64,000 nucleotides of DNA from a virus. Its lineage: Duplodnaviria > Heunggongvirae > Uroviricota > Caudoviricetes. Of the stretch, positions 73-62,370 are shown one piece after another. The first letter of the stretch is position 1, and each line of letters begins with the position of its first letter. Location of the stretch: the IMG/VR virus record IMGVR_UViG_3300037484_000445, positions 387,926-451,925 of that record; one strand, given 5' to 3'. The position numbers were made by a program, and so were the translations under genes. Under the pieces are notes generated by a model that was not told the origin of the DNA, searched no databases, and saw only the letters and a program-made list of their open reading frames with translations.

Positions 73-108
73 CTTAAGAATCTGGGGGATTCTTCCGTAG
101 AAGGGGGT
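73..108 (+). promoter_or_regulatory. Class A promoter motif CTTAA-N18-CGTA-N9-ATG (representative of about 23 copies)
   Basis: CTTAA 73-77, CGTA 96-99, ATG 109; same geometry recurs across the window. Confidence 0.8.
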
Positions 109-485
109 ATGTCTTCTGAAAGTACGCCGGCCCAGGTTCTAATGGTCACTTTGAAGCGTGAGTTTGTGGAAGCTGGGTATCTTGAAGAGAAAGAGGGAGG
201 GGCATGGGTTTTGACGGAAGCTGGGAGGGCCTACCTTGATGGGTATGAGGCACGGCATCCGAAGTTGAAGCTTGAGGACTTAGGGGGAATCGTTCGGGAG
301 TTTGAAGCTCTTGGTGTTGAAGCTTGGGGGATGCGAGCCGGGTCGAGGTATGGTTGAAGCTTCGGGGGAAGACGGTCGAGGTTGTACGGTATGTGAGCCG
401 TGTTCTGACACCTGGGTTTCCGAAGGAGCTTGTCGAGGACATGAGGGCGGAGCTAGCCCAGAGGGAAGCTCCTCAGACGACCTAG
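109..485 (+). CDS. Hypothetical protein with winged-helix-like N-terminus; probable frameshift at G5 run 326-330
   Basis: ORF 109-357 (GYL...WVLTEAGRAYL); -1 frame continues DASRVEVWLKLRG... to TAG 485. Confidence 0.55.
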
Positions 486-651
486 GGATGGCCTTTGGGC
501 GCTTCTTCCAAGGGGGGCGGGGTATTGGTGTGGGTCCTGACCCAGAACGGCTTTGGGGGTGGCTTCTAGGCTTGGGGGAGGGCTATTGACGTTGTGGGCT
601 GGCGGGGTCTGTCCTCAAATTTCCTATGGATCGACATTTTGAGGGCAAACC

Positions 652-667
652 GGTGTAACTCAGAGGG
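652..667 (+). promoter_or_regulatory. Class B promoter motif GGTGTA-N10-ATG (representative of about 25 copies)
   Basis: GGTGTA 652-657, ATG 668; recurs 9-12 nt before many starts. Confidence 0.8.
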
Positions 668-1006
668 ATGTCGAAGCCGTGGAATGCTGGGCGTGAGAGT
701 GCTGATGACCTTCTCGACCCTTTGGTAGGGATTTTGAAGTACGTGGGGGCACATCCGGAGGTGAGACCGGAGGACATTGTGAACCTATTGGCCGAGACGA
801 AGGCTGAGCCGATGCCATTTGGGGCGAGAGGCACATCGTTCACGATGGAGGAGTGGTTGGAGCACGACCCGCGAGCTGAGGAGTACTCGATACGGTTGTT
901 TTTGCGGGCGTTTCGTTATGGTGTTGAGCAGGGGCGGCGGATGGCGATACAGCGACTATCGGATGGTGGAGCAGTGGGGTTCATGCGGGACGCTGAGGGT
1001 CTTTAG
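668..1006 (+). CDS. Hypothetical protein
   Basis: 112 aa ORF directly after class B motif. Confidence 0.75.
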   Translation: MSKPWNAGRESADDLLDPLVGILKYVGAHPEVRPEDIVNLLAETKAEPMPFGARGTSFTMEEWLEHDPRAEEYSIRLFLRAFRYGVEQGRRMAIQRLSDGGAVGFMRDAEGL

Positions 1007-1014
1007 TTTCTGGC

Positions 1015-1626
1015 CTAATTCGCCCTAGCCTCATCTGATGTTCCAGGCTCCATGGTTAGTTCCTCTGTTTGAGTGTTGAAGTTCATGCAGAGGTTGGCCC
1101 TATCTATAAACACGTAAACTCTACAGGGTCTGTTGGATGTTAGCCACTGTGCTGCCGGTGCATCAATGTTCTTCAAAGTCCTAGCGAGCCGCTTTGCCCT
1201 TTGTCTGGAGATTACGAAGTGATCCGCTACCCCGTCCCATCCAAGTTCTTTGAGGAGGCGGTGTGCTATTGGGTGTGGGTTTCGAACAAGTGCTGGTAGT
1301 TCCCCCTTGAGCATGTGCTCGGCGAGCCATTCAGCATTAGGTGTTACTACGAATTCGTGAAACTCTTTGAATTTGCGTGCTATTGTAGCGGTCGTTTCTG
1401 GATCAGGTATATTCATTTGGGTATCCTTGGTGAGGGTCTTCAACTTCTGGAGTTCGGTGACCAGTTTTCTGGCGGCGGTGACGGCCATTTTGCTATCGGC
1501 TTCGGAGAGGTTCTCGTAGAGATAGTTGGCTCCGGTGCCGTCGAGGTCGTTCTCGAGGGTAGCGATCAAGGAATCGAGGACGTAGTCCCGAGCGGCTCTT
1601 TGGCTGGTGAGTTGACGTTTGGGCAT
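1015..1626 (-). CDS. Hypothetical protein (possibly two genes; internal AAGGA-ATG at MNIPDPE)
   Basis: 203 aa ORF in a minus-strand gene run. Confidence 0.65.
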   Translation of the reverse strand: MPKRQLTSQRAARDYVLDSLIATLENDLDGTGANYLYENLSEADSKMAVTAARKLVTELQKLKTLTKDTQMNIPDPETTATIARKFKEFHEFVVTPNAEWLAEHMLKGELPALVRNPHPIAHRLLKELGWDGVADHFVISRQRAKRLARTLKNIDAPAAQWLTSNRPCRVYVFIDRANLCMNFNTQTEELTMEPGTSDEARAN

Positions 1627-1663
1627 TTGTACTCAGCACACACGGCCCTTGAGGGAGCTGTCT

Positions 1664-3641: not shown

Positions 3642-4099
3642 AGTGTTTCCGTGTAGGTGACGTAGGGGAAGGCGACGAAGCCTTCGGGGAGGATTTCGAC
3701 CCAGTTGATGGCGTCTATCAATTCCTTACGATTTTTCTCGGTGGTATGCCGGAGAACTTGAGCCATGATGTCGCCGAGGTCACCGTGGACGACGAGGTCA
3801 CCACGCTTTGCTGAGTTGCCGTTGCCGGCTGAGCACTCGAACAAGCTCTCGAGGATTGTCTGCAGGATATGCCGCTTGGGTAAAGCAGTTCGAATGGTTT
3901 CGAGCATATCGGCGTCGAATAGGAGCTTCAGTTGGGTCTCTTGGGCTACGATGATGTTCTTGAGGGCCACCACTTTATCTGGGATCCCAGTATCGGTCTC
4001 TGGAATGCGGGCCAGTTCGTCTCGATTGGCTTCGATTCTACGAAGGACCATTTGGATGCACTTGATTGGCACGGTGAGGGAGGCGTTGTCGTCTGGCAT
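3638..4099 (-). CDS. Hypothetical protein
   Basis: Class A motif 4109-4135, 9 nt before ATG. Confidence 0.75.
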   Translation of the reverse strand: MPDDNASLTVPIKCIQMVLRRIEANRDELARIPETDTGIPDKVVALKNIIVAQETQLKLLFDADMLETIRTALPKRHILQTILESLFECSAGNGNSAKRGDLVVHGDLGDIMAQVLRHTTEKNRKELIDAINWVEILPEGFVAFPYVTYTETL

Positions 4100-4278
4100 A
4101 GTGGTTAGTACGTCCGGTATGGCCGAAAGGTTAAGGGTTTCGATGGACGGGGTACCGCTCTAGGGACGCCACCTGACCGCCGCCATCCTCGACCAGGTCA
4201 CCACGGCCAGGGCTCCACTTCCCACACATTTGATCCGAGTATGTTGAAGGAAATTCTCGACGGTGTATAGTCTGGGAC

Positions 4279-4812
4279 ATGATTAGAGGACAGCTGACCG
4301 TGTTATCTGGACCGATGTTTGCTGGGAAGACGGACACGCTCATCACGATGGCTAGTGCCGTACCTGACGGTGACCGGCGAGTTTACTACCCGGAGATCGA
4401 CACACGATACGAAGCTGGTTATGTGACGGCACACAACGGTCGCAAGATCTTGGCTGAACCTGTAGATCTTCAGCTCTCTCGAGTAGTAGCGGCTCAGAAT
4501 GTCTTCATCGACGAGGCTCAATTCCTTACGGACTTGGAGGCTTTGGAGCGGGTCATGAAGATAGTACGAGGGGGTTCAAATGTCATCGTAGCCGGGCTCG
4601 ATTTGGACTACGCAGAGAAGCCATTTGGGTTGATGGGTGAGTTTATGGTACGATCAAACAAGGTCCTGAAGATCACAGGAACTTGTTCTCACTGTGGGGC
4701 TCCTTCGACCCGAACATACCGCAAGACTTCCGGGATAAGTGATGTTGTGTTAATAGGTGGAAGTGAGTGGTACGAGCCTCGGTGTCTCGATTGTTACCTT
4801 TCTGGTAAGTGA
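4279..4812 (+). CDS. tdk: Thymidine kinase
   Basis: GPMFAGKT P-loop, IDEAQF, AGLDLDY...PF, CxxC and YEPRC zinc ligands. Confidence 0.97.
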   Translation: MIRGQLTVLSGPMFAGKTDTLITMASAVPDGDRRVYYPEIDTRYEAGYVTAHNGRKILAEPVDLQLSRVVAAQNVFIDEAQFLTDLEALERVMKIVRGGSNVIVAGLDLDYAEKPFGLMGEFMVRSNKVLKITGTCSHCGAPSTRTYRKTSGISDVVLIGGSEWYEPRCLDCYLSGK

Positions 4813-4974: not shown

Positions 4975-5019
4975 AGCCAGGCCCTTAAGATTCTACTGGG
5001 CCGACGCGTATAGGAACTC

Positions 5020-5226
5020 ATGCTTGTCCTCAAGTGCTGGAACTACCGGATGATCCAGGACGGTCCCCGCTCGTACTACACGATGCGGTGGGAGTTTGGA
5101 CGTTGGTGGCGTGAGAGTCCGACGGAGCTTTTGGACACCTATCCGAAAACCACGGAAGAGTCTATGCGTGAGGATTGGGCTGCAATCGTGGGAGAACCCC
5201 CTGAAGAATGCCGGCTAGATGCATGA
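5020..5226 (+). CDS. Hypothetical protein
   Basis: Class A motif 4984-5010, 9 nt before ATG. Confidence 0.75.
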   Translation: MLVLKCWNYRMIQDGPRSYYTMRWEFGRWWRESPTELLDTYPKTTEESMREDWAAIVGEPPEECRLDA

Positions 5227-11857: not shown

Positions 11858-12357
11858 ATGTTTGTAACAGCCGATCAACTACTTTGTCATCTCGTGGGCG
11901 ACTATCTACTTCAAAGCGACTGGATGGCCACGGAGAAAACGAAGAAGTGGGTGGCGTGCCTGGCCCATGCAATCACCTACACACTACCTTTCCTACTCCT
12001 CACGACTTCTTGGAAAGCTCTCTTGGTCATCTCGGCTAGCCACTTCGTCATCGACCATTGGCGCTTGGCTCGATACCTCTGTTGGATCAAAAACTATTTA
12101 GCCCCCAAGTGGATCGAAGGTGAGCGGGTTGAGACGAAGGAACCCAACACTATTGTGGGCTATGCCGACGGCACTACTAGGTTTTGGATTACAAATGGGT
12201 TCCTCGGATGATAAGGAACTACTCTTGGTCCGAGTGCGTGGCGACGGGCTACCACAAGGATCGTCCGGTGTGGCTGACGGTGTGGCTCATGATCATCACC
12301 GACAACACGATGCACTTCATCTGCAATGGGTTGGCCCTTAAGTTTTTGGGGTCTTAG
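11858..12357 (+). CDS. DUF3307-family membrane protein, frameshifted at T4 run 12182-12185
   Basis: HLVGDYLLQ, AH..TY, SHFVIDH in frame 1; the C-terminal DNTMH motif is in the -1 frame. Confidence 0.85.
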
Positions 12358-12371
12358 GCCGTACTAGCCTC

Positions 12372-12764
12372 ATGGACAACCCATACCACTGGCAGGTTTC
12401 CGTAACCTCGATTCGCAAGAAGGGCGAAAGCCATTTGGTTATCACAGTTCGGCTGATTGACCTGGCTCTTGGTCTAGACCCCTTCGTCAAAATTCCTCCT
12501 GGCCGTAACCCGTTCCCTGTGCCGAGAGATTTGGCTTTGACGATCAAGCGGTTGGAGGAGTCCTTGGCTTCGTATGATGCCAAAGGGTTGAGTCACCACA
12601 TCCCCGATTTCCTGGTTACCCCCTACCACAACATTGTACACGCCTCGTTGATACTGAAGTCGAAGCCTCGGGTAGTGAAGCGCTTTGAGCACGATCTACG
12701 GCTTAGCCTTTGCATGATCTGCAAGCAGAGTTCGACGCCTTTGACGGAGTGCCCTGCTGCTTGA
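12372..12764 (+). CDS. Hypothetical protein
   Basis: Class A motif 12337-12363, 8 nt before ATG. Confidence 0.75.
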   Translation: MDNPYHWQVSVTSIRKKGESHLVITVRLIDLALGLDPFVKIPPGRNPFPVPRDLALTIKRLEESLASYDAKGLSHHIPDFLVTPYHNIVHASLILKSKPRVVKRFEHDLRLSLCMICKQSSTPLTECPAA

Positions 12765-12783
12765 CTTGGTGTATATACCGATC

Positions 12784-13056
12784 ATGACGTACAGATACGG
12801 ATATGCTAGCCCCAGTCTGTTTGAACGAACCCTTCGCTTGATCGGAGCTTTTATTAAGGAACTCCCGTCGATCTTGGGCACGGCCCTTTGGAGTATCATC
12901 CTTCTAGCCTTCAATGCCGCGGTCTTCGCCCTCATTGTGGCGTGGCCGGCGCAATGGCTTTGGAACGAATGTGCTGTCAGCACCTTCCACGCCCCCCACG
13001 TAGGTTTTTGGCCGGCGTTTGGACTTCTCATTTTGGCTCGAATCATCAAAGGTTAG
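12784..13056 (+). CDS. Small membrane protein
   Basis: Class B motif 12768-12773; hydrophobic, WLWN...FWPAFGL. Confidence 0.75.
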   Translation: MTYRYGYASPSLFERTLRLIGAFIKELPSILGTALWSIILLAFNAAVFALIVAWPAQWLWNECAVSTFHAPHVGFWPAFGLLILARIIKG

Positions 13057-13233: not shown

Positions 13234-13445
13234 TGCTTTTCGATCGAACGCGAGAGACTCTGACCGATGGCCTTGAAGCCTTATTCGTTCGCATCAAGCG
13301 AATAGTCAAGGCCCTAATGGTCCTAGCCATTGTGACTCAATTTGGGCGGATTATCTGTGCCTGGGTACCCTCCTTACCCTACTTCGAAGTGGTCCACCTT
13401 CTTTTGTTTGGTTGGGTGATCTACCTCTTAACTTCCAAGAAGTAG
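13233..13445 (+). CDS. Small membrane protein
   Basis: Two hydrophobic segments; stop/start overlap. Confidence 0.6.
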   Translation: MLFDRTRETLTDGLEALFVRIKRIVKALMVLAIVTQFGRIICAWVPSLPYFEVVHLLLFGWVIYLLTSKK

Positions 13446-13462
13446 GGTTCGTACTACTCTTC

Positions 13463-13684
13463 ATGGCACACCTAACCCCCTACTCCGTCGGCCAACGCTG
13501 GTACTGCGACAACACGAAAACTGGTCGCGAGAGCTTCACGTTCGTGATCATTGGACCAGGCGCCAAGCCGGGTGAAAAGAAGTGTCGTCTGGAATACGAC
13601 AATCCAACGGCCTTGTGCCACAATTTGGAGCAGATTTACAACCACAAGCACCTCAAAAAGTATGCGAAGCACGTTGAGGCTTAA
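13463..13684 (+). CDS. Small SH3-like beta-barrel protein
   Basis: Class A motif 13427-13453; YSVGQRWY start motif. Confidence 0.7.
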   Translation: MAHLTPYSVGQRWYCDNTKTGRESFTFVIIGPGAKPGEKKCRLEYDNPTALCHNLEQIYNHKHLKKYAKHVEA

Positions 13685-13713
13685 GTCCCTACGAGACTGG
13701 CCGTAGTGAGAGC

Positions 13714-20232: not shown

Positions 20233-21323
20233 ACACACTAAAAGCTTTCCAAGATGCTGTCATAGTCCGCAACGTGACGGCACGGTTTAAGGCTGCGGCT
20301 ATCGGGTACTCGGATGAGGAGCTCGCGATTCTGGCCATGATTCTAAGCCTCAAACCGGGGTATCGAGCCAAGGAACTCGAGGAGGCCAAGCTCGGACCCT
20401 ACAGCAAAGAGAACCCCCATATCAAGAGTTTGATAGAAAAGGGTCTTCTGAAGGTCAATAGTAGTGGGGCTATATCGGTAGTGAAGACTAAGGCGGACAA
20501 TGTCTTGAAGGAAGAGTACACGCCAGAGAAGTACCGTCACTACATTCCGAATCCAAGCTTTCACTTCAAGCGTAGGGAAGCTTCGAGCTCCGTGAACGGT
20601 CTTCCCCCAAACCAACACTACATTGAGAAATGTGGCACTTGTGGTACGGTCATCAGCCAATGCAAATGCATGGGAAACAAGATGGTCATACTAGGTACGT
20701 GCGAGAACTGTGCTGGTAAGTGCGAAGGGGGTTGCTCGGGAGAGTGTGACGGTAAGTGCTCTGGAGCATGTAAGTCACGTTTAGGTATGCAGCACTCGTC
20801 CCCTGAAGCTCTAAAGAAGTACTTACATGATCACCCTAAGGCAGATCCGAAAAACCACCACGTAGAGGAACAAAAGGGGCCTTCTAAGAGAGCCGACCCT
20901 AGCACAGCCCATTCGGAAGCTAGTAAGTCCGAAGGACGTTCAAAAGAGACTCAGAAAGCCTTCGATGAGATGGGGGATCTCAAAAAGAAAGTTGATAGTG
21001 CAAACCCCACTGCTGCAAAGAAGTTCGATCGAGCATATGATAAGATCTATGATGGTGGCGAGTCTGCAGCTAAGGCCGCAGACAAGCTTGTTCGTCAATA
21101 TAGCTCTATTGAGTCAGATGAGCCACGGGCTGCCGTACGAATGTTAGATCATGCTCTACGGGCTTGGGACTCCAATAAGGCTGACCATCAAGGATCCAAG
21201 GACGAATACACCTACAAAAAACTACAACAAGCTGAGCAGACGCACGCTTATGCTCAAGAGCTTGAAAGAGCCCTACAAGATGTCAGCAAAGCACTTAGAG
21301 GTGATTACGACGAAAGGGCTTAA
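20229..21323 (+). CDS. Putative multi-module virion protein (wHTH-like, Cys-rich and helical modules)
   Basis: RNVTARFKAA tag; modules separated by RREA and SRLG. Confidence 0.6.
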   Translation: MNTLKAFQDAVIVRNVTARFKAAAIGYSDEELAILAMILSLKPGYRAKELEEAKLGPYSKENPHIKSLIEKGLLKVNSSGAISVVKTKADNVLKEEYTPEKYRHYIPNPSFHFKRREASSSVNGLPPNQHYIEKCGTCGTVISQCKCMGNKMVILGTCENCAGKCEGGCSGECDGKCSGACKSRLGMQHSSPEALKKYLHDHPKADPKNHHVEEQKGPSKRADPSTAHSEASKSEGRSKETQKAFDEMGDLKKKVDSANPTAAKKFDRAYDKIYDGGESAAKAADKLVRQYSSIESDEPRAAVRMLDHALRAWDSNKADHQGSKDEYTYKKLQQAEQTHAYAQELERALQDVSKALRGDYDERA

Positions 21324-21352
21324 GCTGACGCTATTAATGGCGTATTGTAGTT

Positions 21353-21589
21353 ATGTGTGATCATCCTAGCACAACAGTCCCTGGTCAACTGCTTAGAATC
21401 ATTGATAAAGATCAACAGATTCTGTTCGAGGCCAAAGTCCAAGTCTGTCTGGGTTGTGGACATACAACGGGTACCGCAAACAACGGATCGATGTTTCATC
21501 CAATTGAATTCGGGTTCGAGGGTACCACCTACGAACTGGCTATAACTCAAGCCCGAGAAAAATATCAGGCTTTGGCTTCTGTATCATGA
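21353..21589 (+). CDS. Small zinc-binding hypothetical protein
   Basis: Class A motif 21319-21344; CxH...CxxC. Confidence 0.7.
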   Translation: MCDHPSTTVPGQLLRIIDKDQQILFEAKVQVCLGCGHTTGTANNGSMFHPIEFGFEGTTYELAITQAREKYQALASVS

Positions 21590-24562: not shown

Positions 24563-24599
24563 TTGCTGAAACATCTGACCGTATAGGCTTAGGAGAGCC

Positions 24600-26912: not shown

Positions 26913-26950
26913 ACCCCCATTACGGACCACGCATCTGAAGGTTAAGCCCC

Positions 26951-34514: not shown

Positions 34515-34527
34515 GGATGGCTATACG

Positions 34528-35116: not shown

Positions 35117-35121
35117 GAGGT

Positions 35122-38647: not shown

Positions 38648-38847
38648 GGACGTCGCGCTTTCTCGAGGCTACCAACGCCACGAGCCTTCAGAGCTTTTGC
38701 TACAGCCAGAGCTACACGTTGCTCCGACAAGACCGTATTGACCTTGGGGTTGGCTAAATGTTCGGCTTCGCTCCAAGCGAGAGGTCTCTTGGACCTCCAC
38801 CAAGTTAGGGCCGCTTTCTCTACTGGGCTGGCATCTCGAATGTGCAT
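38644..38847 (-). CDS. Hypothetical protein
   Basis: Class A motif 38861-38886; WWRSKRP..WS...HLANP..N. Confidence 0.75.
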   Translation of the reverse strand: MHIRDASPVEKAALTWWRSKRPLAWSEAEHLANPKVNTVLSEQRVALAVAKALKARGVGSLEKARRP

Positions 38848-38998
38848 GGTATGTCCCTAATACGTTCTGGGTCCTGAGAAGTTAAGGTCTTCCAAATCGT
38901 ACAGATTTTGGCTACTCGTCCGGCGTATCATTTTTAGTACCTTTCGCCGGGTTAGGTGTATATACATCTGCTCGAAGGTTCCCTAAGGAGACCCCCAC

Positions 38999-39379: not shown

Positions 39380-39418
39380 AGTTAAGGGCCAGAACCACAG
39401 TGGTTCTGGCCCTTAACT
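39380..39418. repeat. Perfect 19+1+19 palindrome whose right arm contains a class A CTTAA
   Basis: AGTTAAGGGCCAGAACCAC A GTGGTTCTGGCCCTTAACT. Confidence 0.9.
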
Positions 39419-39446
39419 ATCCTGACGATTGGTCGTATAAAGGCGC

Positions 39447-41162
39447 ATGACAGCTAGTCAGGTAGTCCGGGGCACGAGCATTTCTAGACGTGTGGCCGAC
39501 TTGATCATTAGTGCTTTGGTTGACTTAGGTACCGACACATTCTTTGGGGTCCCGGGTGGACCCGTGGCGCCTATCTACGATGCGATTTGGACAACCCCGA
39601 GGGCTCGCCTCATTGAATCCAGGCATGAGACCGGGGCAGCTTTTGCCGCGGCTGGGTACCAAAAGTCTGGTGGTCGTGTACCTTGTGTTGTGGTGACGGC
39701 GGGTCCAGGAGCCACCAATGCTCTTACGGGCGTCACGGCGGCTCATTTCGAACGTACTCCGATGATTGTCATCTCGGGGGATGTTTCTTGGGCAGCAAAG
39801 GGAGGCCGGCTACTGCAGGATTCAGGGCCTCAGGGTACCAACATCGAGGAATTGTTCCGAGGGGTGACCCGAATGGTCATTCGCATAAACCAGCCACAGT
39901 CGGCTACGGCCCAAGTGGTGGCAGCCCTTAAGGCCGCGACCAACCTCGAGAACCCGGGCCCGGTTCTTATTGTCGTAGCCATCAATCAGGCTTCGAGCCA
40001 AGCAATTTCCCCCGAGATAGTGTTGGGATCCGCGGTAGAGCCCAACCTTACGGCTGGTATTCCTGTGGTTGCTCAAGTCTTAGAGAAGTTGCTCAAGGCT
40101 GAAAGGCCCCTGATTGTGCTTGGTGCCGGTTGTCGATCAGCCAAGACCTTTCTAGAAACCCTAACCTCGGTACTCAAGATCCCCATCATAACAACCCCAC
40201 GAGCAAAGGGGATCCTGAACGAAAACCACTCCTGTTCATTGCGCCACGGCGGCTTGGCGGCTTCGATGTGGGCTCGGGAGTATACCCGGCGGGGTGTCGA
40301 TGTGGCCCTGGTCTTAGGTACCGATCTGGATGATTGCTCGATTGGTCCAACCCCCTACGTACGTGAAGGGGGTGAGCTGATCCACGTGGACTTGGATGCC
40401 AGGGTATTCAACCGTAACCTGCCCACAACATTGGGGATCGTGGCGGATGTCCAAAGTTTCATAGTGTCCCTGATAACTCTCTGTCGCGACAACGAGCTTC
40501 CCTTGAAGCAGGAAGTTCTTGATATCAAGGCAGAATCCGCCTTCGATGTGGCGACCTTTGCCGAGGACACAAAGACCCCTATTACTCCTTACCGGGCGCT
40601 GGCGGACCTTCAAAGGGCGTGGCCTAGTGCGATGTTTGTGACGGATATTGGGGAGCACATGCTCTTTGCTCTGCACTATTTGACGGCTACAGATGCCAGC
40701 AAATTCACCATTCACTTGGGATTGGGAAGCATGGGTTCGGGTATTTGCTCTTCTTTGGGGTTAGCCTTGGGTGCCCGGAACTCCAAAGTCGTCTGTGTTT
40801 GCGGCGACGGCGGCATGCAAATGAATGGGATGGAGGTCATGGTAGCAAAGATGCAGAAGCTGAGGATCCTCTTCGCTGTTTTCAACGACAGTCGCTACAA
40901 CATGGTCCACCACGGCTTTCGTCAAGTCTTTGGTCGGGAGATCTCCGTGGAAACCCCCTTGATCGATTTTCGTGATTGGGGAAGGTCTTTGGGGATCCCT
41001 TCTGAGAGGATTCTGCACCCGGGAGATATCACAGCAGCTTTGGTTGACCTGCTCACGGCAGAAGGACCTGCTATTTTGGACATCCGGATCGACAAAGATA
41101 TTCGAATGGCCGGCGGGGGACGCAATGAGGTCCTCCAGCAAATGAGCCTTACTCAGACTTAA
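39447..41162 (+). CDS. Thiamine pyrophosphate-dependent enzyme (acetolactate synthase-like)
   Basis: FGVPGG, RHETGAAFAA, TAGPGATN, GSMG, GDGG...NDS.YNMV. Confidence 0.95.
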   Translation: MTASQVVRGTSISRRVADLIISALVDLGTDTFFGVPGGPVAPIYDAIWTTPRARLIESRHETGAAFAAAGYQKSGGRVPCVVVTAGPGATNALTGVTAAHFERTPMIVISGDVSWAAKGGRLLQDSGPQGTNIEELFRGVTRMVIRINQPQSATAQVVAALKAATNLENPGPVLIVVAINQASSQAISPEIVLGSAVEPNLTAGIPVVAQVLEKLLKAERPLIVLGAGCRSAKTFLETLTSVLKIPIITTPRAKGILNENHSCSLRHGGLAASMWAREYTRRGVDVALVLGTDLDDCSIGPTPYVREGGELIHVDLDARVFNRNLPTTLGIVADVQSFIVSLITLCRDNELPLKQEVLDIKAESAFDVATFAEDTKTPITPYRALADLQRAWPSAMFVTDIGEHMLFALHYLTATDASKFTIHLGLGSMGSGICSSLGLALGARNSKVVCVCGDGGMQMNGMEVMVAKMQKLRILFAVFNDSRYNMVHHGFRQVFGREISVETPLIDFRDWGRSLGIPSERILHPGDITAALVDLLTAEGPAILDIRIDKDIRMAGGGRNEVLQQMSLTQT

Positions 41163-41192
41163 CTTCTTTGGTTCGAAGGCCGTATAACTGCC

Positions 41193-42035
41193 ATGAACCA
41201 TTTACCTGAGAACCATAGCGGAGCGTACACTGACGACCAGCTCGTGGGTTTATGGCTCTCAGGGAGGCCGGTTTCAACCCAGACGGTCTATCGTCCCGTT
41301 GTGGTAGAGTTCCTGAAGTCGCTGAGCAAGGGCCTTCAAGAAGCCACCGTAGCCGACGTGGTCGCCTGGACTGAAAGCCTTACAGGCTCGCCGGCCACCA
41401 AATGTCGCAAGGTGTCGACGATCAAGAGCCTGCTCTCCTACGCCCACCGAACGGGCTACAATGTGTTCAATGTAGGGCTTTGCCTTCGAGTTCAACGGCC
41501 CACGAGCGACCTTCATGAGCGCATCATCGAAGCTGAACAAGTCCCCTTGATTCTTGATGAGGCCGCCGCCGGACGTGACCGGATCCTTCTGAAGTTCCTT
41601 TATGCCTCAGGCGCCCGTATCAGCGAAGCCTGTTCGATTCGATTCGTTGACCTCCGGGGGAATCGCGTGACCCTCCAAGGTAAAGGCCAGAAGACCCGCA
41701 CGGTTTTGATTCCTGAGACCGTGGCTCAAGAGCTTCGATCCCTCCGTTGGGTATCGGACACCGAGCAAAGCCCCATCTTCAAGTCCTACCGGGGCCGCGC
41801 TCTCAACGTCCGAAACGCCCGGACCCTTGTGTCCCAAGCAGCCCATGAAGCCGGCGTCGAGATGAGCCCCCACTGGTTCCGCCACGCCCACGCTTCCCAC
41901 GCCCTGGACAACGGAGCCCCCATCCACCTGGTTTCCCAATGTTTGGGCCACCAGAATGTCGCGACGACCTCGAAGTACCTTCACGCTCGCCCGACGGATG
42001 GCGCCAGTAGATATCTCTCGATCCCCCAGGGGTGA
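41193..42035 (+). CDS. Tyrosine recombinase (XerC/D-like)
   Basis: SGARISE, GKGQK, HWFRH, LGH, Y catalytic set. Confidence 0.95.
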   Translation: MNHLPENHSGAYTDDQLVGLWLSGRPVSTQTVYRPVVVEFLKSLSKGLQEATVADVVAWTESLTGSPATKCRKVSTIKSLLSYAHRTGYNVFNVGLCLRVQRPTSDLHERIIEAEQVPLILDEAAAGRDRILLKFLYASGARISEACSIRFVDLRGNRVTLQGKGQKTRTVLIPETVAQELRSLRWVSDTEQSPIFKSYRGRALNVRNARTLVSQAAHEAGVEMSPHWFRHAHASHALDNGAPIHLVSQCLGHQNVATTSKYLHARPTDGASRYLSIPQG

Positions 42036-42764: not shown

Positions 42765-42878
42765 AAAGTGATCGTCGTCTGGCTGTTAGTACGGATTTGT
42801 GCTTGCACTAATTAAGAGGCTGCGATAGAAACTGAGGACTAGGAGCTCCTCACACACTTTCTCGAGGAGTAGATAAAC

Positions 42879-43046: not shown

Positions 43047-43324
43047 TCCAGATGGGGTCATCGTGATTGTGGGGCTCGTCGATTCAATTAGCGAGCCCTC
43101 TCACGACCCTCTCAGAAAGTTGCTCGGGGGTCAGGGCAACAAAGTAGCTACCTACATGTCGTTGTAATCATTAGGTATTGCCGTTATTTAGGTTCCTAAC
43201 CCGAGCCTTTTCTGGCGGATCTTTGTTTCAAGTTCCTCTAAGGAGGGCTGAGAACTTCGCGGTGAGGTATCCCCGAGTCCTCGGTGTATAGGAGATACGG
43301 AGGAATCCTCCGGAGTTAAGAATC

Positions 43325-44718: not shown

Positions 44719-45770
44719 GACCACATTCTCCTTTGGCGTTCTTCGCCGAAAACATCCTTTTTGTGCATCAAAATGGTGAGTCCTATGCTGACGAGCAGCT
44801 GAATGATGACGAGCAGAGCTAGTGTTCCCCCTGTAGGTTGAGCAGCGTCCATCAGGTAAGCAAATTCGCTCATAGGGGTCCTGTGAAATTCTTGAGCAAT
44901 ACCCTGGCGAATGATGTCTAACACTTTGGGATCGCTGAGATCCAGTGTCTGGAGGTTGTCCCGGAGATGTATCTTCAGATCCTCTACTCGAGAAATGGTG
45001 ATAACTCGGACCCACTTGATGGCCCGCCCCTCAACCCCTATCACGAGGGTGATTGAATTCTTGGGGCCGTACAGCCACTTGGCCTCGAGAGCTTGGGCGT
45101 AGGTGGGATCGTTGATAGTGGTTAGGACCACGGTCACGTCAACCTGTTTAGTCGCGCCGAAGTCAGCATTAATCTCGCGGAAGAAGTCTTGCCACCCAGC
45201 GGGCACCGGAACGTCCAAGCCTATGACATGGTTCACTTTGTAAAGATTGTAGATCTTGGGGTACTTGGGGATAGACCCTAAGAACTTGCCCATATCCTTG
45301 TGGACGAAGAGACTCTCGGGATCTGCAAGAAGGAAATTCTGGTAGATGTGGGAGACGGCAGCGGGTTCCCCGACTCTAGCCTGGGCCCAAACATCGGGCG
45401 TGCTGTCCCAACCACTGCAATCCTCAACGTCTATGGTTCCTACAGTGGTCCTCAAATTCCAGTAATAGTCCGTCGTATGACTACACTCCTCGTGAGATCG
45501 GGTACACTTACCATCCTTGTCCTTAGCATCGCACTCATCGTGACAATGACAGCACTTTTGGGTACCATGGACCTTCTGGGTGATGCGACCGTTCAAGTGC
45601 TCTATGTCGCTGACGGCAGCGTACTTGGCTATGAACCACGAGGCAACTACGACAGTCACCCCCACCGATATCTGAAGGAGAAACTCCTTGGTCGTTATCG
45701 TGGCTTTCAGTAAAAAGAAGGCCACGATACTAACAACGACTGGGATGAAGATCAGGAGCAGGAAGTTCAC
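44715..45770 (-). CDS. Three-TM membrane protein with Cys-rich and TPM-like extracytoplasmic region
   Basis: Class A motif 45780-45806; translationally coupled to the LemA-like gene. Confidence 0.7.
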   Translation of the reverse strand: MNFLLLIFIPVVVSIVAFFLLKATITTKEFLLQISVGVTVVVASWFIAKYAAVSDIEHLNGRITQKVHGTQKCCHCHDECDAKDKDGKCTRSHEECSHTTDYYWNLRTTVGTIDVEDCSGWDSTPDVWAQARVGEPAAVSHIYQNFLLADPESLFVHKDMGKFLGSIPKYPKIYNLYKVNHVIGLDVPVPAGWQDFFREINADFGATKQVDVTVVLTTINDPTYAQALEAKWLYGPKNSITLVIGVEGRAIKWVRVITISRVEDLKIHLRDNLQTLDLSDPKVLDIIRQGIAQEFHRTPMSEFAYLMDAAQPTGGTLALLVIIQLLVSIGLTILMHKKDVFGEERQRRMWS

Positions 45771-45885
45771 GGGGACCTATACGGTGGGGGCTGCTAACAA
45801 CTTAAGTGCCAGCCGGTTTTTGCGTATATACACCGCAGGCCTAAAGGCCTGCTAGGCTTGGCCGTAAGTTGGTGTAAATAGACCC

Positions 45886-48088: not shown

Positions 48089-48343
48089 GTGCCTGAGGTA
48101 GTTTCAATGTTTCTTTCTTTGCTATTGGGTTGCAGCAGCATGCTGTTCACCAATGCCTCCATACGAGCTCACGACGCTATTCCAGCCTGCCGCTACCGTG
48201 AGCTTCAAGGACTTCGAAACAAGACCCAGACGTACACGGGGTTGTCCGTGGCCTTGGGTCTAGCTCCCTTGTGGTGGCCGCCGTTAGGGATCCCGGTTAC
48301 GTTGGTGTCGATTGGCTATATGGCCTATAAGCGTTTGGCTTAA
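48089..48343 (+). CDS. Small membrane protein
   Basis: Hydrophobic segments; its stop lies within the next promoter motif. Confidence 0.6.
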   Translation: MPEVVSMFLSLLLGCSSMLFTNASIRAHDAIPACRYRELQGLRNKTQTYTGLSVALGLAPLWWPPLGIPVTLVSIGYMAYKRLA

Positions 48344-48372
48344 GTTCTATTCCAACCGGCCGTAATGGAGAT

Positions 48373-49206
48373 ATGCTCCCTAAGTCTGAATTTGACCGAA
48401 TTCTGATGAGTCCACAAGTTCGATCTATGCTCGAAGAGCTTCTGATCGACGGGGAGCTGCAGAGGACTTTCCCCGAAGTTCATGCCATGGTTGGCTTTGG
48501 TGGCGGGGAACAAGGTCACAAGGACCTTTGGGGGCACACCAAGCAGGTCGTTTACCAGTGCCCGTATGACCTCACCATTCGATGGGCGGCCTTATTCCAC
48601 GACGTGGGCAAGATTCGATGCTTCGTACGAAACAACGACGGAGTGTCTTTCCACGGACATGAGATTGCAGGTGCTAGGCTATTTAGTAATGCCGCTTCAC
48701 GCACCCGACTCTTCAAGGCTCAAGAAATAGGGGATATCTACCTTCTCATTGGAACCTTAGGCTACGTTGAGTCCTATGAATCCGAGTGGACGGATAGTGC
48801 CGTACGACGACTGAGAAACTCAGTTGCAGACTGCTTCGACAGTCTTTTGAGTCTGTCCCGAGCGGACATTACCACGCGGCATGATCACAAGCGAGTTGCT
48901 CACCACGCGAGAATTCAAGAGTTGAAGGACCGAGCCGACGCTATTCTAAAGGCAGATTCGGCTACTCCGATGCTTCCCAGGGATTTGGGTACCGCCCTTC
49001 AAAAGGACCTGGGTATAGCACCCTCACCTCTTCTTGGGAAAATCGTAGCTGCGATCAAATCCGCTGTAGCAGCGGGGGACTTGCCTTGGCCCCCCACGAT
49101 CGAACAAGCTGTCGAACACGCAAAAACCGTATGTATACCCCAAATATCCGCACCACCCACAACCCCCGAAACATTGCCGCCTACGGAGGATCTTACGACC
49201 CGGTGA
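48373..49206 (+). CDS. HD-domain protein like the C-terminal half of CCA tRNA nucleotidyltransferase (no NTase head)
   Basis: FPE...HKDLWGHT, AALFHDVGK, SFHGHE..GA, WTDSAVRR, RADITT. Confidence 0.88.
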   Translation: MLPKSEFDRILMSPQVRSMLEELLIDGELQRTFPEVHAMVGFGGGEQGHKDLWGHTKQVVYQCPYDLTIRWAALFHDVGKIRCFVRNNDGVSFHGHEIAGARLFSNAASRTRLFKAQEIGDIYLLIGTLGYVESYESEWTDSAVRRLRNSVADCFDSLLSLSRADITTRHDHKRVAHHARIQELKDRADAILKADSATPMLPRDLGTALQKDLGIAPSPLLGKIVAAIKSAVAAGDLPWPPTIEQAVEHAKTVCIPQISAPPTTPETLPPTEDLTTR

Positions 49207-53744: not shown

Positions 53745-54097
53745 GTACGAGCTTCCTTGCGTTTGGGGGCCTTGACAAACTTACGCTTTTTCGATCCGTA
53801 GAGTCCGTGGAACTGTAGGTCCTGAGGACTCATAGTCCTTATGGCCCGTCGAGCCTTCAAATAGGCTTCACGGATCGTGAGACCGTAGGTAAAAAGCTTA
53901 GGTTGGTTGGAGTATCCTAAAGCAATACACCAGATCATGATGCAGCTTTGCCCGACATCTGCGGACTTTTTGAGTTCTATCCCGTAGCTCTTCCACAAGG
54001 TTCGATCAAGGATCACCCTCGTAATTGAGGGATCTGCCGTATTGGGGTTAGTTAGTAGGCTAGTGAGACTCTTGTCAATATCCCAACGCATGGTCAC
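53741..54097 (-). CDS. Hypothetical protein co-transcribed with the ADP-ribosylglycohydrolase
   Basis: Class A motif 54130-54155; GTGA overlap. Confidence 0.7.
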   Translation of the reverse strand: MTMRWDIDKSLTSLLTNPNTADPSITRVILDRTLWKSYGIELKKSADVGQSCIMIWCIALGYSNQPKLFTYGLTIREAYLKARRAIRTMSPQDLQFHGLYGSKKRKFVKAPKRKEART

Positions 54098-54201
54098 CGT
54101 CCGAAGTTCTTGAAGTCACAACGAATAGATACGGTCGGCCTGGTTGTCGATTAAGCCCAAAAAGGCATTAAGTCCTTCAGCGAGTGGCCGTATAGACCCC
54201 C

Positions 54202-55782
54202 ATGCTTCAGACCACATCGGACGCCCTGAACAATTTCGACGAACCTCTGCCTGAGTATATACCTATCACCCGGACGGATGGCTACAAGCTATCGATGGCA
54301 GAAGCTGGGGCACCTCTCCGCATTGAAAGCTTCTACTACGCCCACCGTCGCGGCGGTATCAATGGCTGGCACTACATGCCAGTGGACGTCGACCAGTTCG
54401 TTCGGTCCCTGTTGCCAACACCCAAACCCGAGGACTACGATTATCTCACGCATCACAACTACGAAGTCGGGGCGGCCTATCGTCGGGCCATGACCATGCG
54501 GGACAGTCTTGTGGTGAGAGGGGTGCCGAAGGGCTGTTGGTTCTACAACCGTGAGCCTGCTTACTCGGTCAAATCCACTTCCGTGATCTCTAGTTGGATC
54601 GAACCCACGGGGTTGATGCTCCAGTTTCGCATTCAAGCGGCCACGGCCATGCTCACCAACACCAACAAGGAGCGTCTTAAGTATGCGACATGCCTGAAAG
54701 AAAAGGAGATTCTTCTCGAGTTGTACGAAAGCCTTGGGGTCCGAGCGCCTGAGATCATCGTACGTTCGGAAGATTACTTCAAAGCCGTCCTCAAGCGAGG
54801 ACAGGATATTGTGATGCTCTTGGGAGATCCCAGCCGGGCCTTTGAAGTCGGCATGCGGGCGGTGTCCTGCATTGAGCAGCATGAGATTGCTCTTGCTGCC
54901 TTGAAAGAGGCTGGCATCGTTCGAACCTCTAACGTAGAAGCTGCCCAAAAGCTGGACATGGTCCCTGTGGGGACCATGGGCCACGAGCATCTTCAGCGAA
55001 TGGGTAGCGATTACGAAGGCTTCACGTCCATGCGTGATCGATTCCCCGGGTTTCTCTCCTACCTCCTCGATACCTTTGATACGTTGCGGTCAGGGATCCC
55101 AACGGGTCTCCGCGTGATAGCCGAGCAACCCTACCGTCAAGCAGGCCTTCGATTCGACTCAGAAAAGTCTGTTCTAGGCCAGTACGTGTTCGCCGTCGCT
55201 CGATCGCGGGACATGGGCTTGGAGCCCTACCTCACCCTCGAGAGTGGTTGGGACTACCAAAAGACTGTTGAATACGAGAAGTATCGGGAGATGCTTGGTT
55301 GGCCCAGCAAGCTTCAGGGGTATGGCTACGGTGGGTACTTCGTCAAACCTGAGTGGCCCACCTTCGAGCGTGATGGTGTGGCCGCCGTGTACAAGCTGAG
55401 CCAGACCGGTAGCAAGGCTTGCATGAAGTTCGGAGATGACCCCGGCAGCCCCAAGCAGTCAATCCCGGGCGAGCCTGTCATTTGGCGATACAAGCCCTTG
55501 AGTTGCTACCAAGGGAATCTAATCAGCGTGATTGCCCAGGACGGAGAGGTCATCCCCAACCAAGAGGCTTTTTACCGGGTTGACCTCGAGGGAGCTGACT
55601 ACCTACCTCCTATGAAAGCCGGTAAGCCCGATCAAATACCGTCTCACATGACTCTGTTGAAGAGACGTCTCGGAATCACTGACGAAGGCGAAGTTCAAAT
55701 GTCTCCTGAGACAGCCCGTTTGATTGCCGAATGCACAGCACGTCGCGAAGCAGCCATCGACAAGGCTTCAGGGGCATTATGA
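54202..55782 (+). CDS. pncB: Nicotinate phosphoribosyltransferase
   Basis: TDGYKLSM, FEVGMR, TSNV, GTMGHE, LLDTFD, RFDS, VYKL. Confidence 0.85.
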   Translation: MLQTTSDALNNFDEPLPEYIPITRTDGYKLSMAEAGAPLRIESFYYAHRRGGINGWHYMPVDVDQFVRSLLPTPKPEDYDYLTHHNYEVGAAYRRAMTMRDSLVVRGVPKGCWFYNREPAYSVKSTSVISSWIEPTGLMLQFRIQAATAMLTNTNKERLKYATCLKEKEILLELYESLGVRAPEIIVRSEDYFKAVLKRGQDIVMLLGDPSRAFEVGMRAVSCIEQHEIALAALKEAGIVRTSNVEAAQKLDMVPVGTMGHEHLQRMGSDYEGFTSMRDRFPGFLSYLLDTFDTLRSGIPTGLRVIAEQPYRQAGLRFDSEKSVLGQYVFAVARSRDMGLEPYLTLESGWDYQKTVEYEKYREMLGWPSKLQGYGYGGYFVKPEWPTFERDGVAAVYKLSQTGSKACMKFGDDPGSPKQSIPGEPVIWRYKPLSCYQGNLISVIAQDGEVIPNQEAFYRVDLEGADYLPPMKAGKPDQIPSHMTLLKRRLGITDEGEVQMSPETARLIAECTARREAAIDKASGAL

Positions 55783-60156: not shown

Positions 60157-60989
60157 ACTCTAGTGCTTCCGTACGTCGCGTTCTGGCTGCCTACTTCAAC
60201 GTCGGTGATCTCATAACCTTTGGTAAGTACCAGAACAAGAAAGGCCGTATCGTCGGTTTTACTACCGACGAAAAGGGCTATCCTGCTGTTGAGATTGAGC
60301 CCGTACCTAAAGACGGAAAGCACAACAAGACCCTAACACTATTCAAAATCCGCAAAGTGCCAATAGAGAAACAAGCCATGAACCTAGCACGTCGAGTAGT
60401 TGCACGTTATCTTCAAGCCTTTGGTGGATGGACCGTCGTTGTGGGTAATATCCGCATTCAACGATGGCAAAATGCCATACGCGTTTGGGACCTCACCAAT
60501 GCTGGTAAGCGGGGTAAGAAGGTCGACAGCATCCACGTTTGGACCAAAAGACACTTACCCCACGAAGAGGAGAGTGCCTTCATCGGCAGGCTCTATGAGA
60601 TGCTTCAGAATTACGACACTCTAGCCGAAGCCAAAAGTGGGATCGAAGACTATATGGACCAGTATCCAGACAGTTTGAGTCTGGACAAAGGCCAAGAGCG
60701 TGGGATCGACGTGCAGCCGGCAGGTACCACAAGTCTTCGTTTGACTACGAGCACAGGTTGTAGGATCACAGCAACACCACTTGAGTGGCAGATTGTCAAC
60801 ACTGTGGAGTTCACAGGACCTAGGGGTAACAAATTCGATCAAGACACTAGTTACTGGAACCGAGGTAAGAAGTCGGCACAGCTATTCTACAATTGGTTGT
60901 TGGGGAACACAGACAAAATCAGTCGTATGACAATCCAAGACTTCCAGAAATTGTGGAGTGAGTTGGGTATTGACTACGACTCCCATTGA
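60153..60989 (+). CDS. Putative virion polyprotein with two RV[LV]A.Y tags
   Basis: VRRVLAAY at the N-terminus; EKQA-MNLARRVVARYLQA internally. Confidence 0.6.
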   Translation: MNSSASVRRVLAAYFNVGDLITFGKYQNKKGRIVGFTTDEKGYPAVEIEPVPKDGKHNKTLTLFKIRKVPIEKQAMNLARRVVARYLQAFGGWTVVVGNIRIQRWQNAIRVWDLTNAGKRGKKVDSIHVWTKRHLPHEEESAFIGRLYEMLQNYDTLAEAKSGIEDYMDQYPDSLSLDKGQERGIDVQPAGTTSLRLTTSTGCRITATPLEWQIVNTVEFTGPRGNKFDQDTSYWNRGKKSAQLFYNWLLGNTDKISRMTIQDFQKLWSELGIDYDSH

Positions 60990-61019
60990 AAGTCCTGTGT
61001 GTTGGTGTACAGCTAAGAC

Positions 61020-61631
61020 ATGATTCTTAGTGGCCCCGAGATCCTCAAACAGGTAGAGCTAGGCAACATCAGAATTGACCCCTTCAATGCCAAAAGGGTC
61101 AACCCGGCGAGCTTCGATCTGACCCTCGGAGACCAGGTTGCCGTTTACTCAAACGTGGTCGACTTCCTCCAGGGAGAGATACCGAGTTTCGGGCACAACT
61201 TGGTGCCAAAGCGTGACGGTATCTTGGACACAGCAAAAAATGAAGGTGTCCTGAGGTACAAGATCCTTCCAGAAGGGTGGCTTTTGAAGCCAGGCATCGG
61301 ATACTTGATGCATACGGCGGAAACCGTATGGACGAAGAGCTATGTACCCGTGCTAGATGGTAAATCATCCATTGGGCGTATGTTCATCAAGGTCCACGAG
61401 ACCGCGGGCTACGGCGATCCAAACTTCGACGGTCAGTATACTCTTGAGGTGACCGCTGTACATCCAGTCATTGTCTATCCAGGGATGCGCATTGCTCAGA
61501 TTCGCTTCCATGCTATGGAGGGCGAACTGGCTTTATACGACGGCAACTACAAGAACGAAAACGCCAAGGGTCCCGTACCTTCGCGTGTTTGGGCCCAGAT
61601 TAAGAATGAGGGCCTGGGCAAAAAAGATTGA
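61020..61631 (+). CDS. dcd: dCTP deaminase
   Basis: MILS, PASFDLTL, GKSSIGR, AGYGDPNFDGQYTLE, GMRIAQ. Confidence 0.94.
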   Translation: MILSGPEILKQVELGNIRIDPFNAKRVNPASFDLTLGDQVAVYSNVVDFLQGEIPSFGHNLVPKRDGILDTAKNEGVLRYKILPEGWLLKPGIGYLMHTAETVWTKSYVPVLDGKSSIGRMFIKVHETAGYGDPNFDGQYTLEVTAVHPVIVYPGMRIAQIRFHAMEGELALYDGNYKNENAKGPVPSRVWAQIKNEGLGKKD

Positions 61632-61688
61632 AAATTCAAGGGAGTCCGAATACATCGAAGATAATCCTTTGGTGTACCAATGCCTTAC

Positions 61689-61766
61689 GAGTTGGGAGAC
61701 AACCGCACCCTCGGTTGCCTCAACTTAAGAGCACCGTGAGTCTTTACCCCAAGGTTCACGGTGCTC
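61689..61766. other. Tandem hairpins after a class B motif (terminator or structured 5' leader)
   Basis: GAGTTG..CAACCG/CGGTTG..CAACTT and GAGCACCGTGA/TCACGGTGCTC. Confidence 0.55.
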
Positions 61767-61793
61767 GACTTTTTAGAATAGAATCGCTATCCT

Positions 61794-62330
61794 ATGCAAC
61801 AGATGCACAAGCAACGGTTACACGAGGAAACCATCGGAGTGAAGGTTCCAGGGCGGGGACATCAGTTGGCTACGGTGAGAGTAAGTGCCACCGACAGCGA
61901 TGAAGATGTTCTTCGTGGAATTTCCAAAGTAGTTGGCACAATATTCAACGTAACCGGAGTACGGTACGAGTTGGTATGTGCCGAGCCGTTCAAACTCAAA
62001 CGTTTAAACGGCTCCAAGAAAAGAGACCTCACCGTCGATGACCCCCCTGAAGAGGAAGAAATCGTTGAGGTGGCGGCGCCGGAACCTCCTGTTGTCAAGG
62101 CCGTTACAGAGGTGCCCCCCTTGCCAAAGGATCTGCCTGTAGTCTTCAAAGCACCTTCCAAAGTAGTCCCTGAGAAAACTGTCGGATTTCAAGTAGGTGA
62201 GACGTGGCGAACGAAGGATAAGCGTCGACAGACCACCTTCAAGGTCGTGTCAATTGACGGGGACTTTGCTGTCACGGACGATGCCCGTCGAATCCAATTG
62301 ACTAGATCTTGTCGATACGAGCGAATCTAG
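61794..62330 (+). CDS. Hypothetical protein with C-terminal SH3-like module
   Basis: Pro/Glu linker, FQVGETWRTKD. Confidence 0.7.
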   Translation: MQQMHKQRLHEETIGVKVPGRGHQLATVRVSATDSDEDVLRGISKVVGTIFNVTGVRYELVCAEPFKLKRLNGSKKRDLTVDDPPEEEEIVEVAAPEPPVVKAVTEVPPLPKDLPVVFKAPSKVVPEKTVGFQVGETWRTKDKRRQTTFKVVSIDGDFAVTDDARRIQLTRSCRYERI

Positions 62331-62370
62331 TCGAACCCTCTTAACCGTCACCGTAACTTAGCGTACTGGA

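Follow-up and report, generated by a model that had tools for sequence, protein, structure and literature searches.

Genome Context and Class-A Motif

The window, that is, the whole 64-kb stretch of DNA analyzed in this study, is the final part (positions 387,926–451,925) of the IMG/VR record IMGVR_UViG_3300037484_000445, a phage genome of 451,925 base pairs (bp) with 52% G+C. Its subject element is a bipartite motif, CTTAA-N17/18-CGTA (hereafter class A), which recurs in the window mainly just ahead of start codons; we interpret it as a phage promoter class that very probably yields leaderless mRNAs and is probably read by a sigma factor of the sigma-28 (FliA/WhiG) family encoded by the same phage. 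Positions are those of the window unless they are marked as genome positions. In the complete record, 48 tRNA genes and one tmRNA gene lie close to the start; the first 200 kb hold long genes, nearly all on the plus strand, and the region from 200 to 452 kb holds many small genes on both strands.

The pattern CTTAA-N17/18-CGTA was found 24 times in the window, while 0.40 matches were expected and the largest number in any shuffled sequence was 3. In the whole genome, the strict pattern had 71 matches, none of them before position 171,930 and with the highest density between 360 and 450 kb. An iterated weight-matrix scan of the genome identified 80 sites, with the first 160 kb empty of them, compared with 1–3 in Markov shuffles. 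The fixed geometry claimed in a preliminary description of this DNA is thus real. The spacer between the boxes was 18 nucleotides (nt) long in 54 of the 80 sites, 17 nt in 23, 19 nt in two and 16 nt in one, so that 77 sites had 17 or 18 nt. Both boxes are near-invariant, and weaker preferences extend them to cCTTAA-S-Y-T-Y and CGTA-Y-T-R; the base following CTTAA is C in 41% of the sites and G in 40%. The spacer is not conserved in sequence but is fixed in length, and the flanks are not repeat-like. With respect to gene calls, 66 of the 80 sites are located outside, seven within calls on the same strand and seven within calls on the opposite strand.

Class-A Sites in the Window

On the plus strand, the first site (73–111) consists of CTTAA at 73–77, a spacer of 18 nt, CGTA at 96–99 and, 9 nt further, the ATG at 109 of an open reading frame (ORF) of 82 amino acids (aa). 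The same distance of 9 nt separates CGTA from the ATG at 5020 (site 4984–5022; 68-aa ORF), at 13463 (13427–13465; 73 aa) and at 39447 (39412–39449), the last of which starts a 571-aa thiamine-pyrophosphate enzyme. A distance of 8 nt was found for the site with the top matrix score of the window (12337–12374; ATG at 12372; 130-aa ORF), for 21319–21355 (spacer of 17 nt; ATG at 21353; 78 aa), for two sites ahead of HD-domain proteins of 173 aa (30351–30388; ATG at 30386) and 277 aa (48339–48375; ATG at 48373), and for 41158–41195, followed by the ATG at 41193 of a 280-aa integrase-family recombinase. Under this leaderless-type promoter, the gene at 41193–42035 (plus strand) encodes a tyrosine recombinase (Pfam E 2.5e-30). 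In two further plus-strand sites the first box is ATTAA, as had been noted previously: 35087–35124, 8 nt from the ATG at 35122 of a 98-aa ORF that precedes a thymidylate kinase gene at 35461, and 54167–54204, 9 nt from the ATG at 54202 of a 526-aa ORF that precedes an NAD synthase gene at 55731.

On the minus strand, the start codon lies 8 nt past CGTA at 2302–2339 (spacer of 18 nt; ATG at 2304; 107-aa ORF without a Pfam match), 26910–26946 (ATG at 26912; 184 aa) and 32901–32938 (ATG at 32903; 177 aa), and 9 nt past it at 4097–4135 (spacer of 18 nt; ATG at 4099; 153 aa), 33132–33170 (ATG at 33134; about 66 aa), 34512–34549 (spacer of 17 nt; ATG at 34514; 106 aa) and 45768–45806 (GTG at 45770; 351 aa). 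The palindromic CTTAAG of this last promoter also forms part of a weak plus-strand copy at 45801–45826. All of these starts on both strands were re-derived at the 8 or 9 nt given in the preliminary description. A good minus-strand site that was missing from its list was also identified, with the motif at 34206–34232 and the ATG 8 nt away at 34197 (34195–34232; 154-aa ORF). Besides, the motif corrected ORF starts that had been called too long, for example from 26972 to 26912 and from 13412 to 13463.

The copies reported at other distances were likewise recovered. At 24558–24602 (plus strand) a leader of 16 nt containing AGGAG precedes the ATG at 24600, and at 38845–38886 (minus strand) a short leader places the ATG at 38847, 13 nt from CGTA. 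The minus-strand motif at 54095–54155, either leadered or weak, has the GTG at 54097 at 32 nt, and the distance to the ATG at 62371 is an atypical 5 nt (62340–62373, plus strand). One listed start had to be discarded, namely 13714, where the GTG opens a frame of merely five codons. The corresponding promoter (13680–13705, plus strand) has no usable start, as the nearest start codons open four to five codons and the next sizeable ORF begins at 14026; it must serve something else, and its product may be a small RNA or an mRNA with a long leader. The minus-strand motif at 42790–42816 has no start at 8–9 nt and its nearest ATG is 27 nt away (44 aa), so that its target is uncertain, and the class-A-like sequence at 43296–43320 (minus strand; spacer of 16 nt), with no ORF behind it, is an uncertain member. 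Strong class-A promoters without an ORF behind them also cluster outside the window, at genome positions 377000–386100, and are candidates for small RNAs or for genes with short leaders. The predicted transcripts of three of them (378068, 383580, and 383820) open with a common AAGCGA(C/G).

In general, the class-A genes of the window are mostly small ORFs without known domains, the exceptions being the two HD-domain proteins, the recombinase, the thiamine-pyrophosphate enzyme and the two units that have the thymidylate kinase and NAD synthase genes downstream.

Position of the Start Codon

Throughout the genome, a start codon is located exactly 8 or 9 nt past CGTA in 49 of the 80 sites (binomial P ~1e-52 for ATG at two offsets), and the space left between them is too short for a Shine-Dalgarno (SD) sequence. 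When the 54 sites with a start 6–11 nt past CGTA are considered, the codon is ATG in 49 (91%) and a pyrimidine occupies position −1 in 51 (94%). A pyrimidine followed by a purine is the usual dinucleotide at which transcription starts. These values support the earlier claim that the geometry sets +1 at or beside the start codon. Moreover, spacer length and start distance partly offset each other, the combination 18 + 8 nt being present in 24 sites and 17 + 9 nt in seven, which indicates a weak compensation. Several sites that lack a start codon at the usual distance carry CAT or TAT at that position. Of the sites without a start codon there that are followed by an ORF, five show an SD of the GGAG, GAGG or AGGA type in the leader, the clearest being the AGGAG before 24600. 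The start codons defined by the motif also agree with protein evidence, since the HD domain begins at residue 8 of the protein starting at 30386 and the thiamine-pyrophosphate domain at residue 15 of that starting at 39447. Judging from this placement of the motif relative to the start codons, class-A promoters very probably yield leaderless mRNAs.

It is highly improbable that the motif is something other than a promoter, such as a repeat family, a recombination site or a signal acting at the RNA level. Two short invariant boxes separated by an unconserved spacer of fixed length, an intergenic location, orientation toward genes, a constant distance to ATG and flanks that are not repeat-like all argue against it. 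An archaeal TATA/BRE reading was also considered and abandoned, given that the record is a phage with bacterial-type sigma genes. The data support class A as a bipartite promoter class for an alternative sigma factor, defining a dedicated phage regulon and heading about 80 small gene units in this 452-kb phage.

Sigma Factor Genes of the Phage and Search for Polymerase Genes

Three genes of the sigma-70 family were found in the phage genome. The first (genome 269,968–270,531) encodes a 187-aa sigma-28-like protein whose best NCBIfam hit is FliA_WhiG (E 7e-37), with a match in two pieces and a score of 127 bits against a cut-off of 189.6 bits. Among its ten hits to solved structures, the best seven are FliA or WhiG and none is a sigma factor of the extracytoplasmic function (ECF) family. 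It keeps domains 2 and 4, while domain 3 is missing, the segment between them being about 50 residues shorter. Directly upstream of the gene is the sequence CTTAA-N19-CGTA-N8-ATG, and only class-A promoters were found ahead of it. The open frame extends for 250 aa from a TTG and holds both this class-A motif and the ATG; therefore, the actual protein should be of 187 aa and the gene would itself be a class-A leaderless unit. The N-terminus MATQ, common to the phage relatives of the protein, agrees with this motif-defined start.

The second gene (genome 2,309–3,079) encodes a 256-aa ECF-like protein that matches the sigma70-ECF superfamily and SigZ and has Mycobacterium tuberculosis SigH as its nearest solved relative (E 1e-4); a 449-aa neighbor shows a faint match to sigma region 2. 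The third (genome 62,606–63,343) encodes a 245-aa protein with a region-4-only fold and adjoins a gene for a NusG-like fusion. No gene for RNA polymerase beta or beta′ was found in the phage genome. A search for T7-type polymerases gave no match, but its control was silent too and the result is uninformative. The preliminary description had proposed a dedicated sigma factor or RNA polymerase, with an ECF-like sigma as the reader. Sigma genes do exist in the phage, one of them ECF-like, but no phage RNA polymerase was found and the sigma that best matches the promoters belongs to the sigma-28 (FliA/WhiG) family and lacks domain 3.

Comparison of Class A with Sigma-28 Promoters

The fliC promoter of Pseudomonas aeruginosa, read by sigma-28, has the sequence (−36)TCTAAAG(−30) and (−15)GCCGATAA(−8), which is equivalent to CTAAA-N17-CGAT-N9-+1 (PMC12784957). 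Class A matches sigma-28 promoters (TAAA-N15-GCCGATAA) in geometry and in seven of the nine core bases. In the −35 region, CTTAA and CTAAA are one base apart and both are followed by G or C and a T-rich run; if CTTAA(G/C) is compared with CTAAAG, five of the six positions agree and the mismatch falls at the equivalent of −33. The spacing agrees as well, both in the 17 or 18 nt between boxes (77 of 80 sites) and in the start base 8 or 9 nt after CGTA (49 of 80). In the −10 region, class A has CGTA(y)TA where sigma-28 promoters have CGATAA: the invariant CG precedes TA rather than AT, so that the sigma-28 −10 box GCCGATAA with its essential CGA is not present. The GC extension of sigma-28 promoters is not conserved in class A either, which fits the missing domain 3 of the candidate sigma.

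In the P. aeruginosa sigma-28 structure, Y76 stacks on the flipped −11 base, R80 reads the G at −12, Q228 reads −36/−35 and S224 is near −34/−35 (PMC12784957); D87 also belongs to this set of contact residues, and I79 is adjacent to them. In the alignment of the phage protein to 9wsm_F, Y76, I79, D87, and Q228 are kept, and R80 is replaced by K, being R in the relatives and in the hosts. S224 is replaced by P in the phage sigma, and the specificity loop, which holds the −11 base, has one residue fewer and differs in sequence. Residues and the bases opposite them are thus conserved together and altered together, which is suggestive of a sigma-28-like pairing and is not proof of it. It must be noted that the candidate differs from sigma-28 factors in several other respects: it has no domain 3, scores below the FliA cut-off (127 vs. 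190 bits) and is unrelated to flagella, and its mRNAs would be leaderless.

According to the mechanism that we propose, the core RNA polymerase of the host, carrying a phage-encoded alternative sigma, would bind CTTAA at about −35 to −31 and CGTA at about −13 to −10. Initiation would take place 8–9 nt past CGTA, at the A of the ATG, and most class-A mRNAs would have neither a leader nor an SD sequence. The reader would be the 187-aa relative of sigma-28, and the class-A promoter of its own gene would create a positive feedback. On balance, we consider it probable that class A is read by this protein. The motif, its statistics and placement, and the sigma genes with their kinship are observed, while the transcription start point, the pairing of sigma and promoter and the timing of expression are inferred.

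Several observations weigh against this assignment. If the sigma-28-like factor is the only reader of class A, no trigger was found for its first expression; candidates for the source of the first sigma molecules are the host homologue, read-through, the ECF-like sigma acting in a cascade and a protein carried in the virion. A true ECF-like sigma is present in the phage as well, and a CGTA −10 together with the AAC-like TTAAC present in 41% of the sites would suit such a factor. In addition, the only IMG/VR phage in which a relative of the sigma was found (196 kb; sigma 53% identical) has neither the class-A motif nor a comparable pair of boxes, and the bacterial homologues are preceded by sigma-54 promoters without the N17/18 motif. 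Finally, if the CG is aligned to positions −13/−12 of sigma-28 promoters, a T instead of the flipped A is placed at −11.

The ECF-like protein deserves attention as an alternative reader, in a cascade in which the sigma-28-like gene would be a class-A target launching a later class. Apart from the family matches of the protein, the CGTA −10, set 16–17 nt after an AAC-like TTAAC, agrees with ECF promoters, for instance that of the Bacillus subtilis ECF factor SigW (TGAAAC-N16-CGTA), and the restriction of the sigma-28-like gene to class-A promoters would be accounted for by a cascade. Class A also shares with ECF systems of group 4 a two-domain sigma, a rigid spacing and a sigma gene that is preceded by a promoter of its own class. 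Nevertheless, ECF −35 boxes are GAAC or AAC, with a near-universal C, whereas class A has CTTAA(C/G) with C in 41% and G in 40% of the sites, and by sequence the best-fitting sigma falls outside the ECF family. The operon with the ECF-like gene is preceded by a weak sigma-70-like site, TTGACG-N17-TACAAG, which counts in favor of this reading, but it fails a standard consensus scan; canonical TTGACA-N17-TATAAT promoters were not found in the intergenic DNA of the phage. Moreover, neither of the two other motifs described below (GGTGTA and TTTAT-N13-TGA) resembles a sigma-28 target, which would leave the sigma-28-like factor without a regulon. We consider reading by the ECF-like sigma unlikely, yet it is a real rival and deserves more weight than the other alternatives.

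A split or assisted system, in which one factor reads the −10 box and a separate protein, for example the 245-aa region-4-only protein, binds CTTAA, seems improbable to us. Such a protein does exist beside the NusG-like fusion gene, and the 449-aa neighbor of the ECF-like gene has its faint region-2 match; T4 MotA/AsiA appropriation and two-part sigmas offer parallels. However, a spacing kept strictly at 17/18 nt, together with spacer length and start distance that weakly offset each other, is typical of one sigma that spans the two boxes, and class A has no sigma-A-like −10, as no T at −7 was seen among its sites in the weight matrix.

Sigma Relatives, Probable Host and Distribution of the Motif

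The relatives of the 187-aa sigma-28-like protein are of two types. Those of the phage type, 62–80% identical, are encoded on contigs of 449 and 293 kb. About 1,600 further relatives were found; those listed are 52–57% identical and about 280 aa long, with an N-terminal extension of about 95 residues. The best 80 genome loci (41–56% identical) belong nearly all to Polyangiaceae, Polyangiales, Myxococcales or Myxococcota, with a few metagenome-assembled genomes labeled only as Proteobacteria or delta proteobacterium, and the best 80 metagenome loci encode the same long type (50–58% identical). From the taxonomy of these relatives, the host of the phage is probably a member of the Polyangiaceae (Myxococcota). 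The comparison with GenBank phages yielded no match at the DNA level; for the sigma, the hits were only 28–38% identical, on four short unannotated contigs from human feces. The NusG-nuclease protein, used as a query for relatives, found nothing.

Pattern scans of IMG/VR with 16-base and 14-base versions of the motif gave single chance-like hits only. The class-A pattern was not enriched around the bacterial homologues of the sigma (one hit in 1.25 Mb), and in five whole Polyangiaceae genomes CTTAA-N17/18-CGTA was present 0–6 times per genome, compared with 5–85 times for the reversed pattern. This rarity in host-type genomes may reflect avoidance of CTTAAG or of the promoter itself. As the motif is absent or depleted both in the five Polyangiaceae genomes and in other phages of IMG/VR, it is specific to this phage lineage. 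Of the few copies in Polyangiaceae genomes, two have an ATG 10 nt downstream.

These data bear on the possibility that class A is read by the host homologue (41–58% identical), the phage copy reinforcing or replacing it later. The DNA-reading helices of the phage and bacterial proteins are near-identical, a host factor would settle the problem of first expression, and a few of the copies in host genomes are followed by a start codon at 10 nt or by an SD leader. The depletion of the motif with respect to the reversed control is against it, and the host sigma gene is under sigma-54 control and so would not be constitutively available. We consider this possibility, like the split system, improbable.

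As for the bacterial homologues themselves, they are located behind clear sigma-54 promoters (TGGCAC-N5-CTGCA), upstream of which there are a GGGTC-N6-GACCC palindrome and a CTTAA box 36–38 nt before TGGCAC. This recurrent CTTAA was examined as a possible class-A motif and rejected, the spacing to any CGTA being wrong (12–14 nt). To our knowledge, such a sigma-54 layout has not been described before for a FliA-like sigma of non-flagellated myxobacteria. The copies of the sigma gene in the probable hosts are preceded by SD-like sequences.

Other Expression Classes

A second motif, GGTGTA, is usually preceded by T or C, as (T/C)(T/C)GGTGTA, and has no −35 box. In the whole genome, 125 of its 317 occurrences are followed by ATG or GTG 8–13 nt downstream, mostly at 9–10 nt. 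In the window, the plus-strand copies at 4262–4281, 12768–12786, and 28769–28786 are examples with leaderless-type spacing. The motif is often palindromic, GGTGTATATACACC, and serves divergent genes. We predict from this arrangement a second and larger leaderless promoter class of about 125 genes. The promoter element of phiEco32 gp36, AATGTA at −11.5, is closer to GGTGTA than to class A (PMC12276001). Together, the two classes account for about 148 predicted leaderless genes among 548 gene calls (27%), class A being the smaller of the two.

Ahead of structural genes there is a weaker motif, TTTAT-N13-TGA, and several genes of the structural region have AGGAG upstream. Among the 400 genes that belong to neither leaderless class, an SD-like sequence was found in 43–57%, compared with 20% in the null set. 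The idea put forward previously, that leaderless translation would let the class-A regulon escape a shut-off of canonical initiation, is not sustained by these results: there is a second, larger leaderless class, and many other genes have SD-like sequences, so that we see no indication of class A being a special shut-off-proof channel.

With regard to the origin of the system, we can only tentatively suggest that the phage captured a sigma of the sigma-28 family specific to Polyangiaceae, shed its N-terminal extension of about 95 residues and its sigma-54 control, and retuned it to the CTTAA/CGTA boxes that the host avoids. The result would be an orthogonal, self-amplifying channel which, with the second class, would leave about a quarter of the genes of a jumbo phage with a Gram-negative host leaderless, the leaderless genes being early or middle and the SD-led genes late. 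This scenario is possible, and it is less secure than the assignment of class A to the sigma-28-like factor. If true, such a split between early/middle leaderless and late SD-led expression is not described for jumbo phages.

Comparison with Known Systems

The use of a phage sigma and private promoters is a known strategy, as in SPO1, T4, and phiEco32. As in the phage studied here, phiEco32 gp36, SPO1 gp28 and gp33/34, and T4 gp55 redirect the host core polymerase to private promoters, and several sigmas and several promoter classes are present in one genome. The promoters of those phages, however, are −10-centered and their mRNAs are leadered, whereas class A is bipartite and locked to the start codon. 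Leaderless mRNAs of Actinobacteria and Deinococcus-Thermus likewise have a −10 element a short and constant distance ahead of an AUG that doubles as +1, without an SD sequence (PMC3898074, PMC4633059, PMC3160421). Those bacteria use the housekeeping sigma for them, whereas here the promoters are alternative ones of a phage with a probable Myxococcota host; in a limited literature search, no study of transcription starts in Myxococcota reporting leaderless mRNAs was found. The jumbo phages phiKZ and AR9 also have huge genomes with phage-specific promoter classes, and their mapped starts show no leaderless transcripts, the leaders of AR9 being of 26–491 nt (PMC8244752, PMC5312081). They use their own multisubunit polymerases, whereas none was found in this phage, about a quarter of whose genes are predicted to be leaderless.

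What is new here is the domain-3-less relative of sigma-28 as the probable reader, a pair of boxes that departs by one step from the flagellar consensus and the systematic fusion of promoter and start codon. Promoter bases and contact residues differ from those of sigma-28 at corresponding positions, which offers a small and testable case of rewiring of sigma specificity. As promoter and start codon are fused in about 50 genes, and in about 125 more of the second class, leaderless translation would be a main mode of expression of this phage. For annotation purposes, the motif serves to set start codons correctly and to mark sites with a promoter only, which may give rise to small RNAs. Furthermore, synthetic biology looks for parts of this type, namely a compact, orthogonal sigma and a matching promoter that the host genome avoids.

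Additional Features of the Record

The last ~270 nt of the record (window 63727–64000) are approximately a copy of its first ~270 nt (genome 1–274), from which they differ at about six positions. It follows that the genome is closed, by terminal redundancy or circular permutation, and that the window adjoins the region at 1–3 kb. The IMG/VR entry describes the record as linear and without end repeats, contrary to the repeat seen here.

Outside the window, at genome positions 367524–370145, a 36-nt repeat is present 10 times, with a spacing of 69–73 nt, in a CRISPR-like array. The array is adjoined by an ORF of 629 aa with the Pfam domains RRXRR (E 8.5e-62) and HNH, the architecture of IscB or of a miniature Cas9-like protein. 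An inverted copy of the array repeat near 369296 could be an anti-repeat or belong to a tracrRNA, and single stray copies of the repeat are located at about 329460 and 377184.

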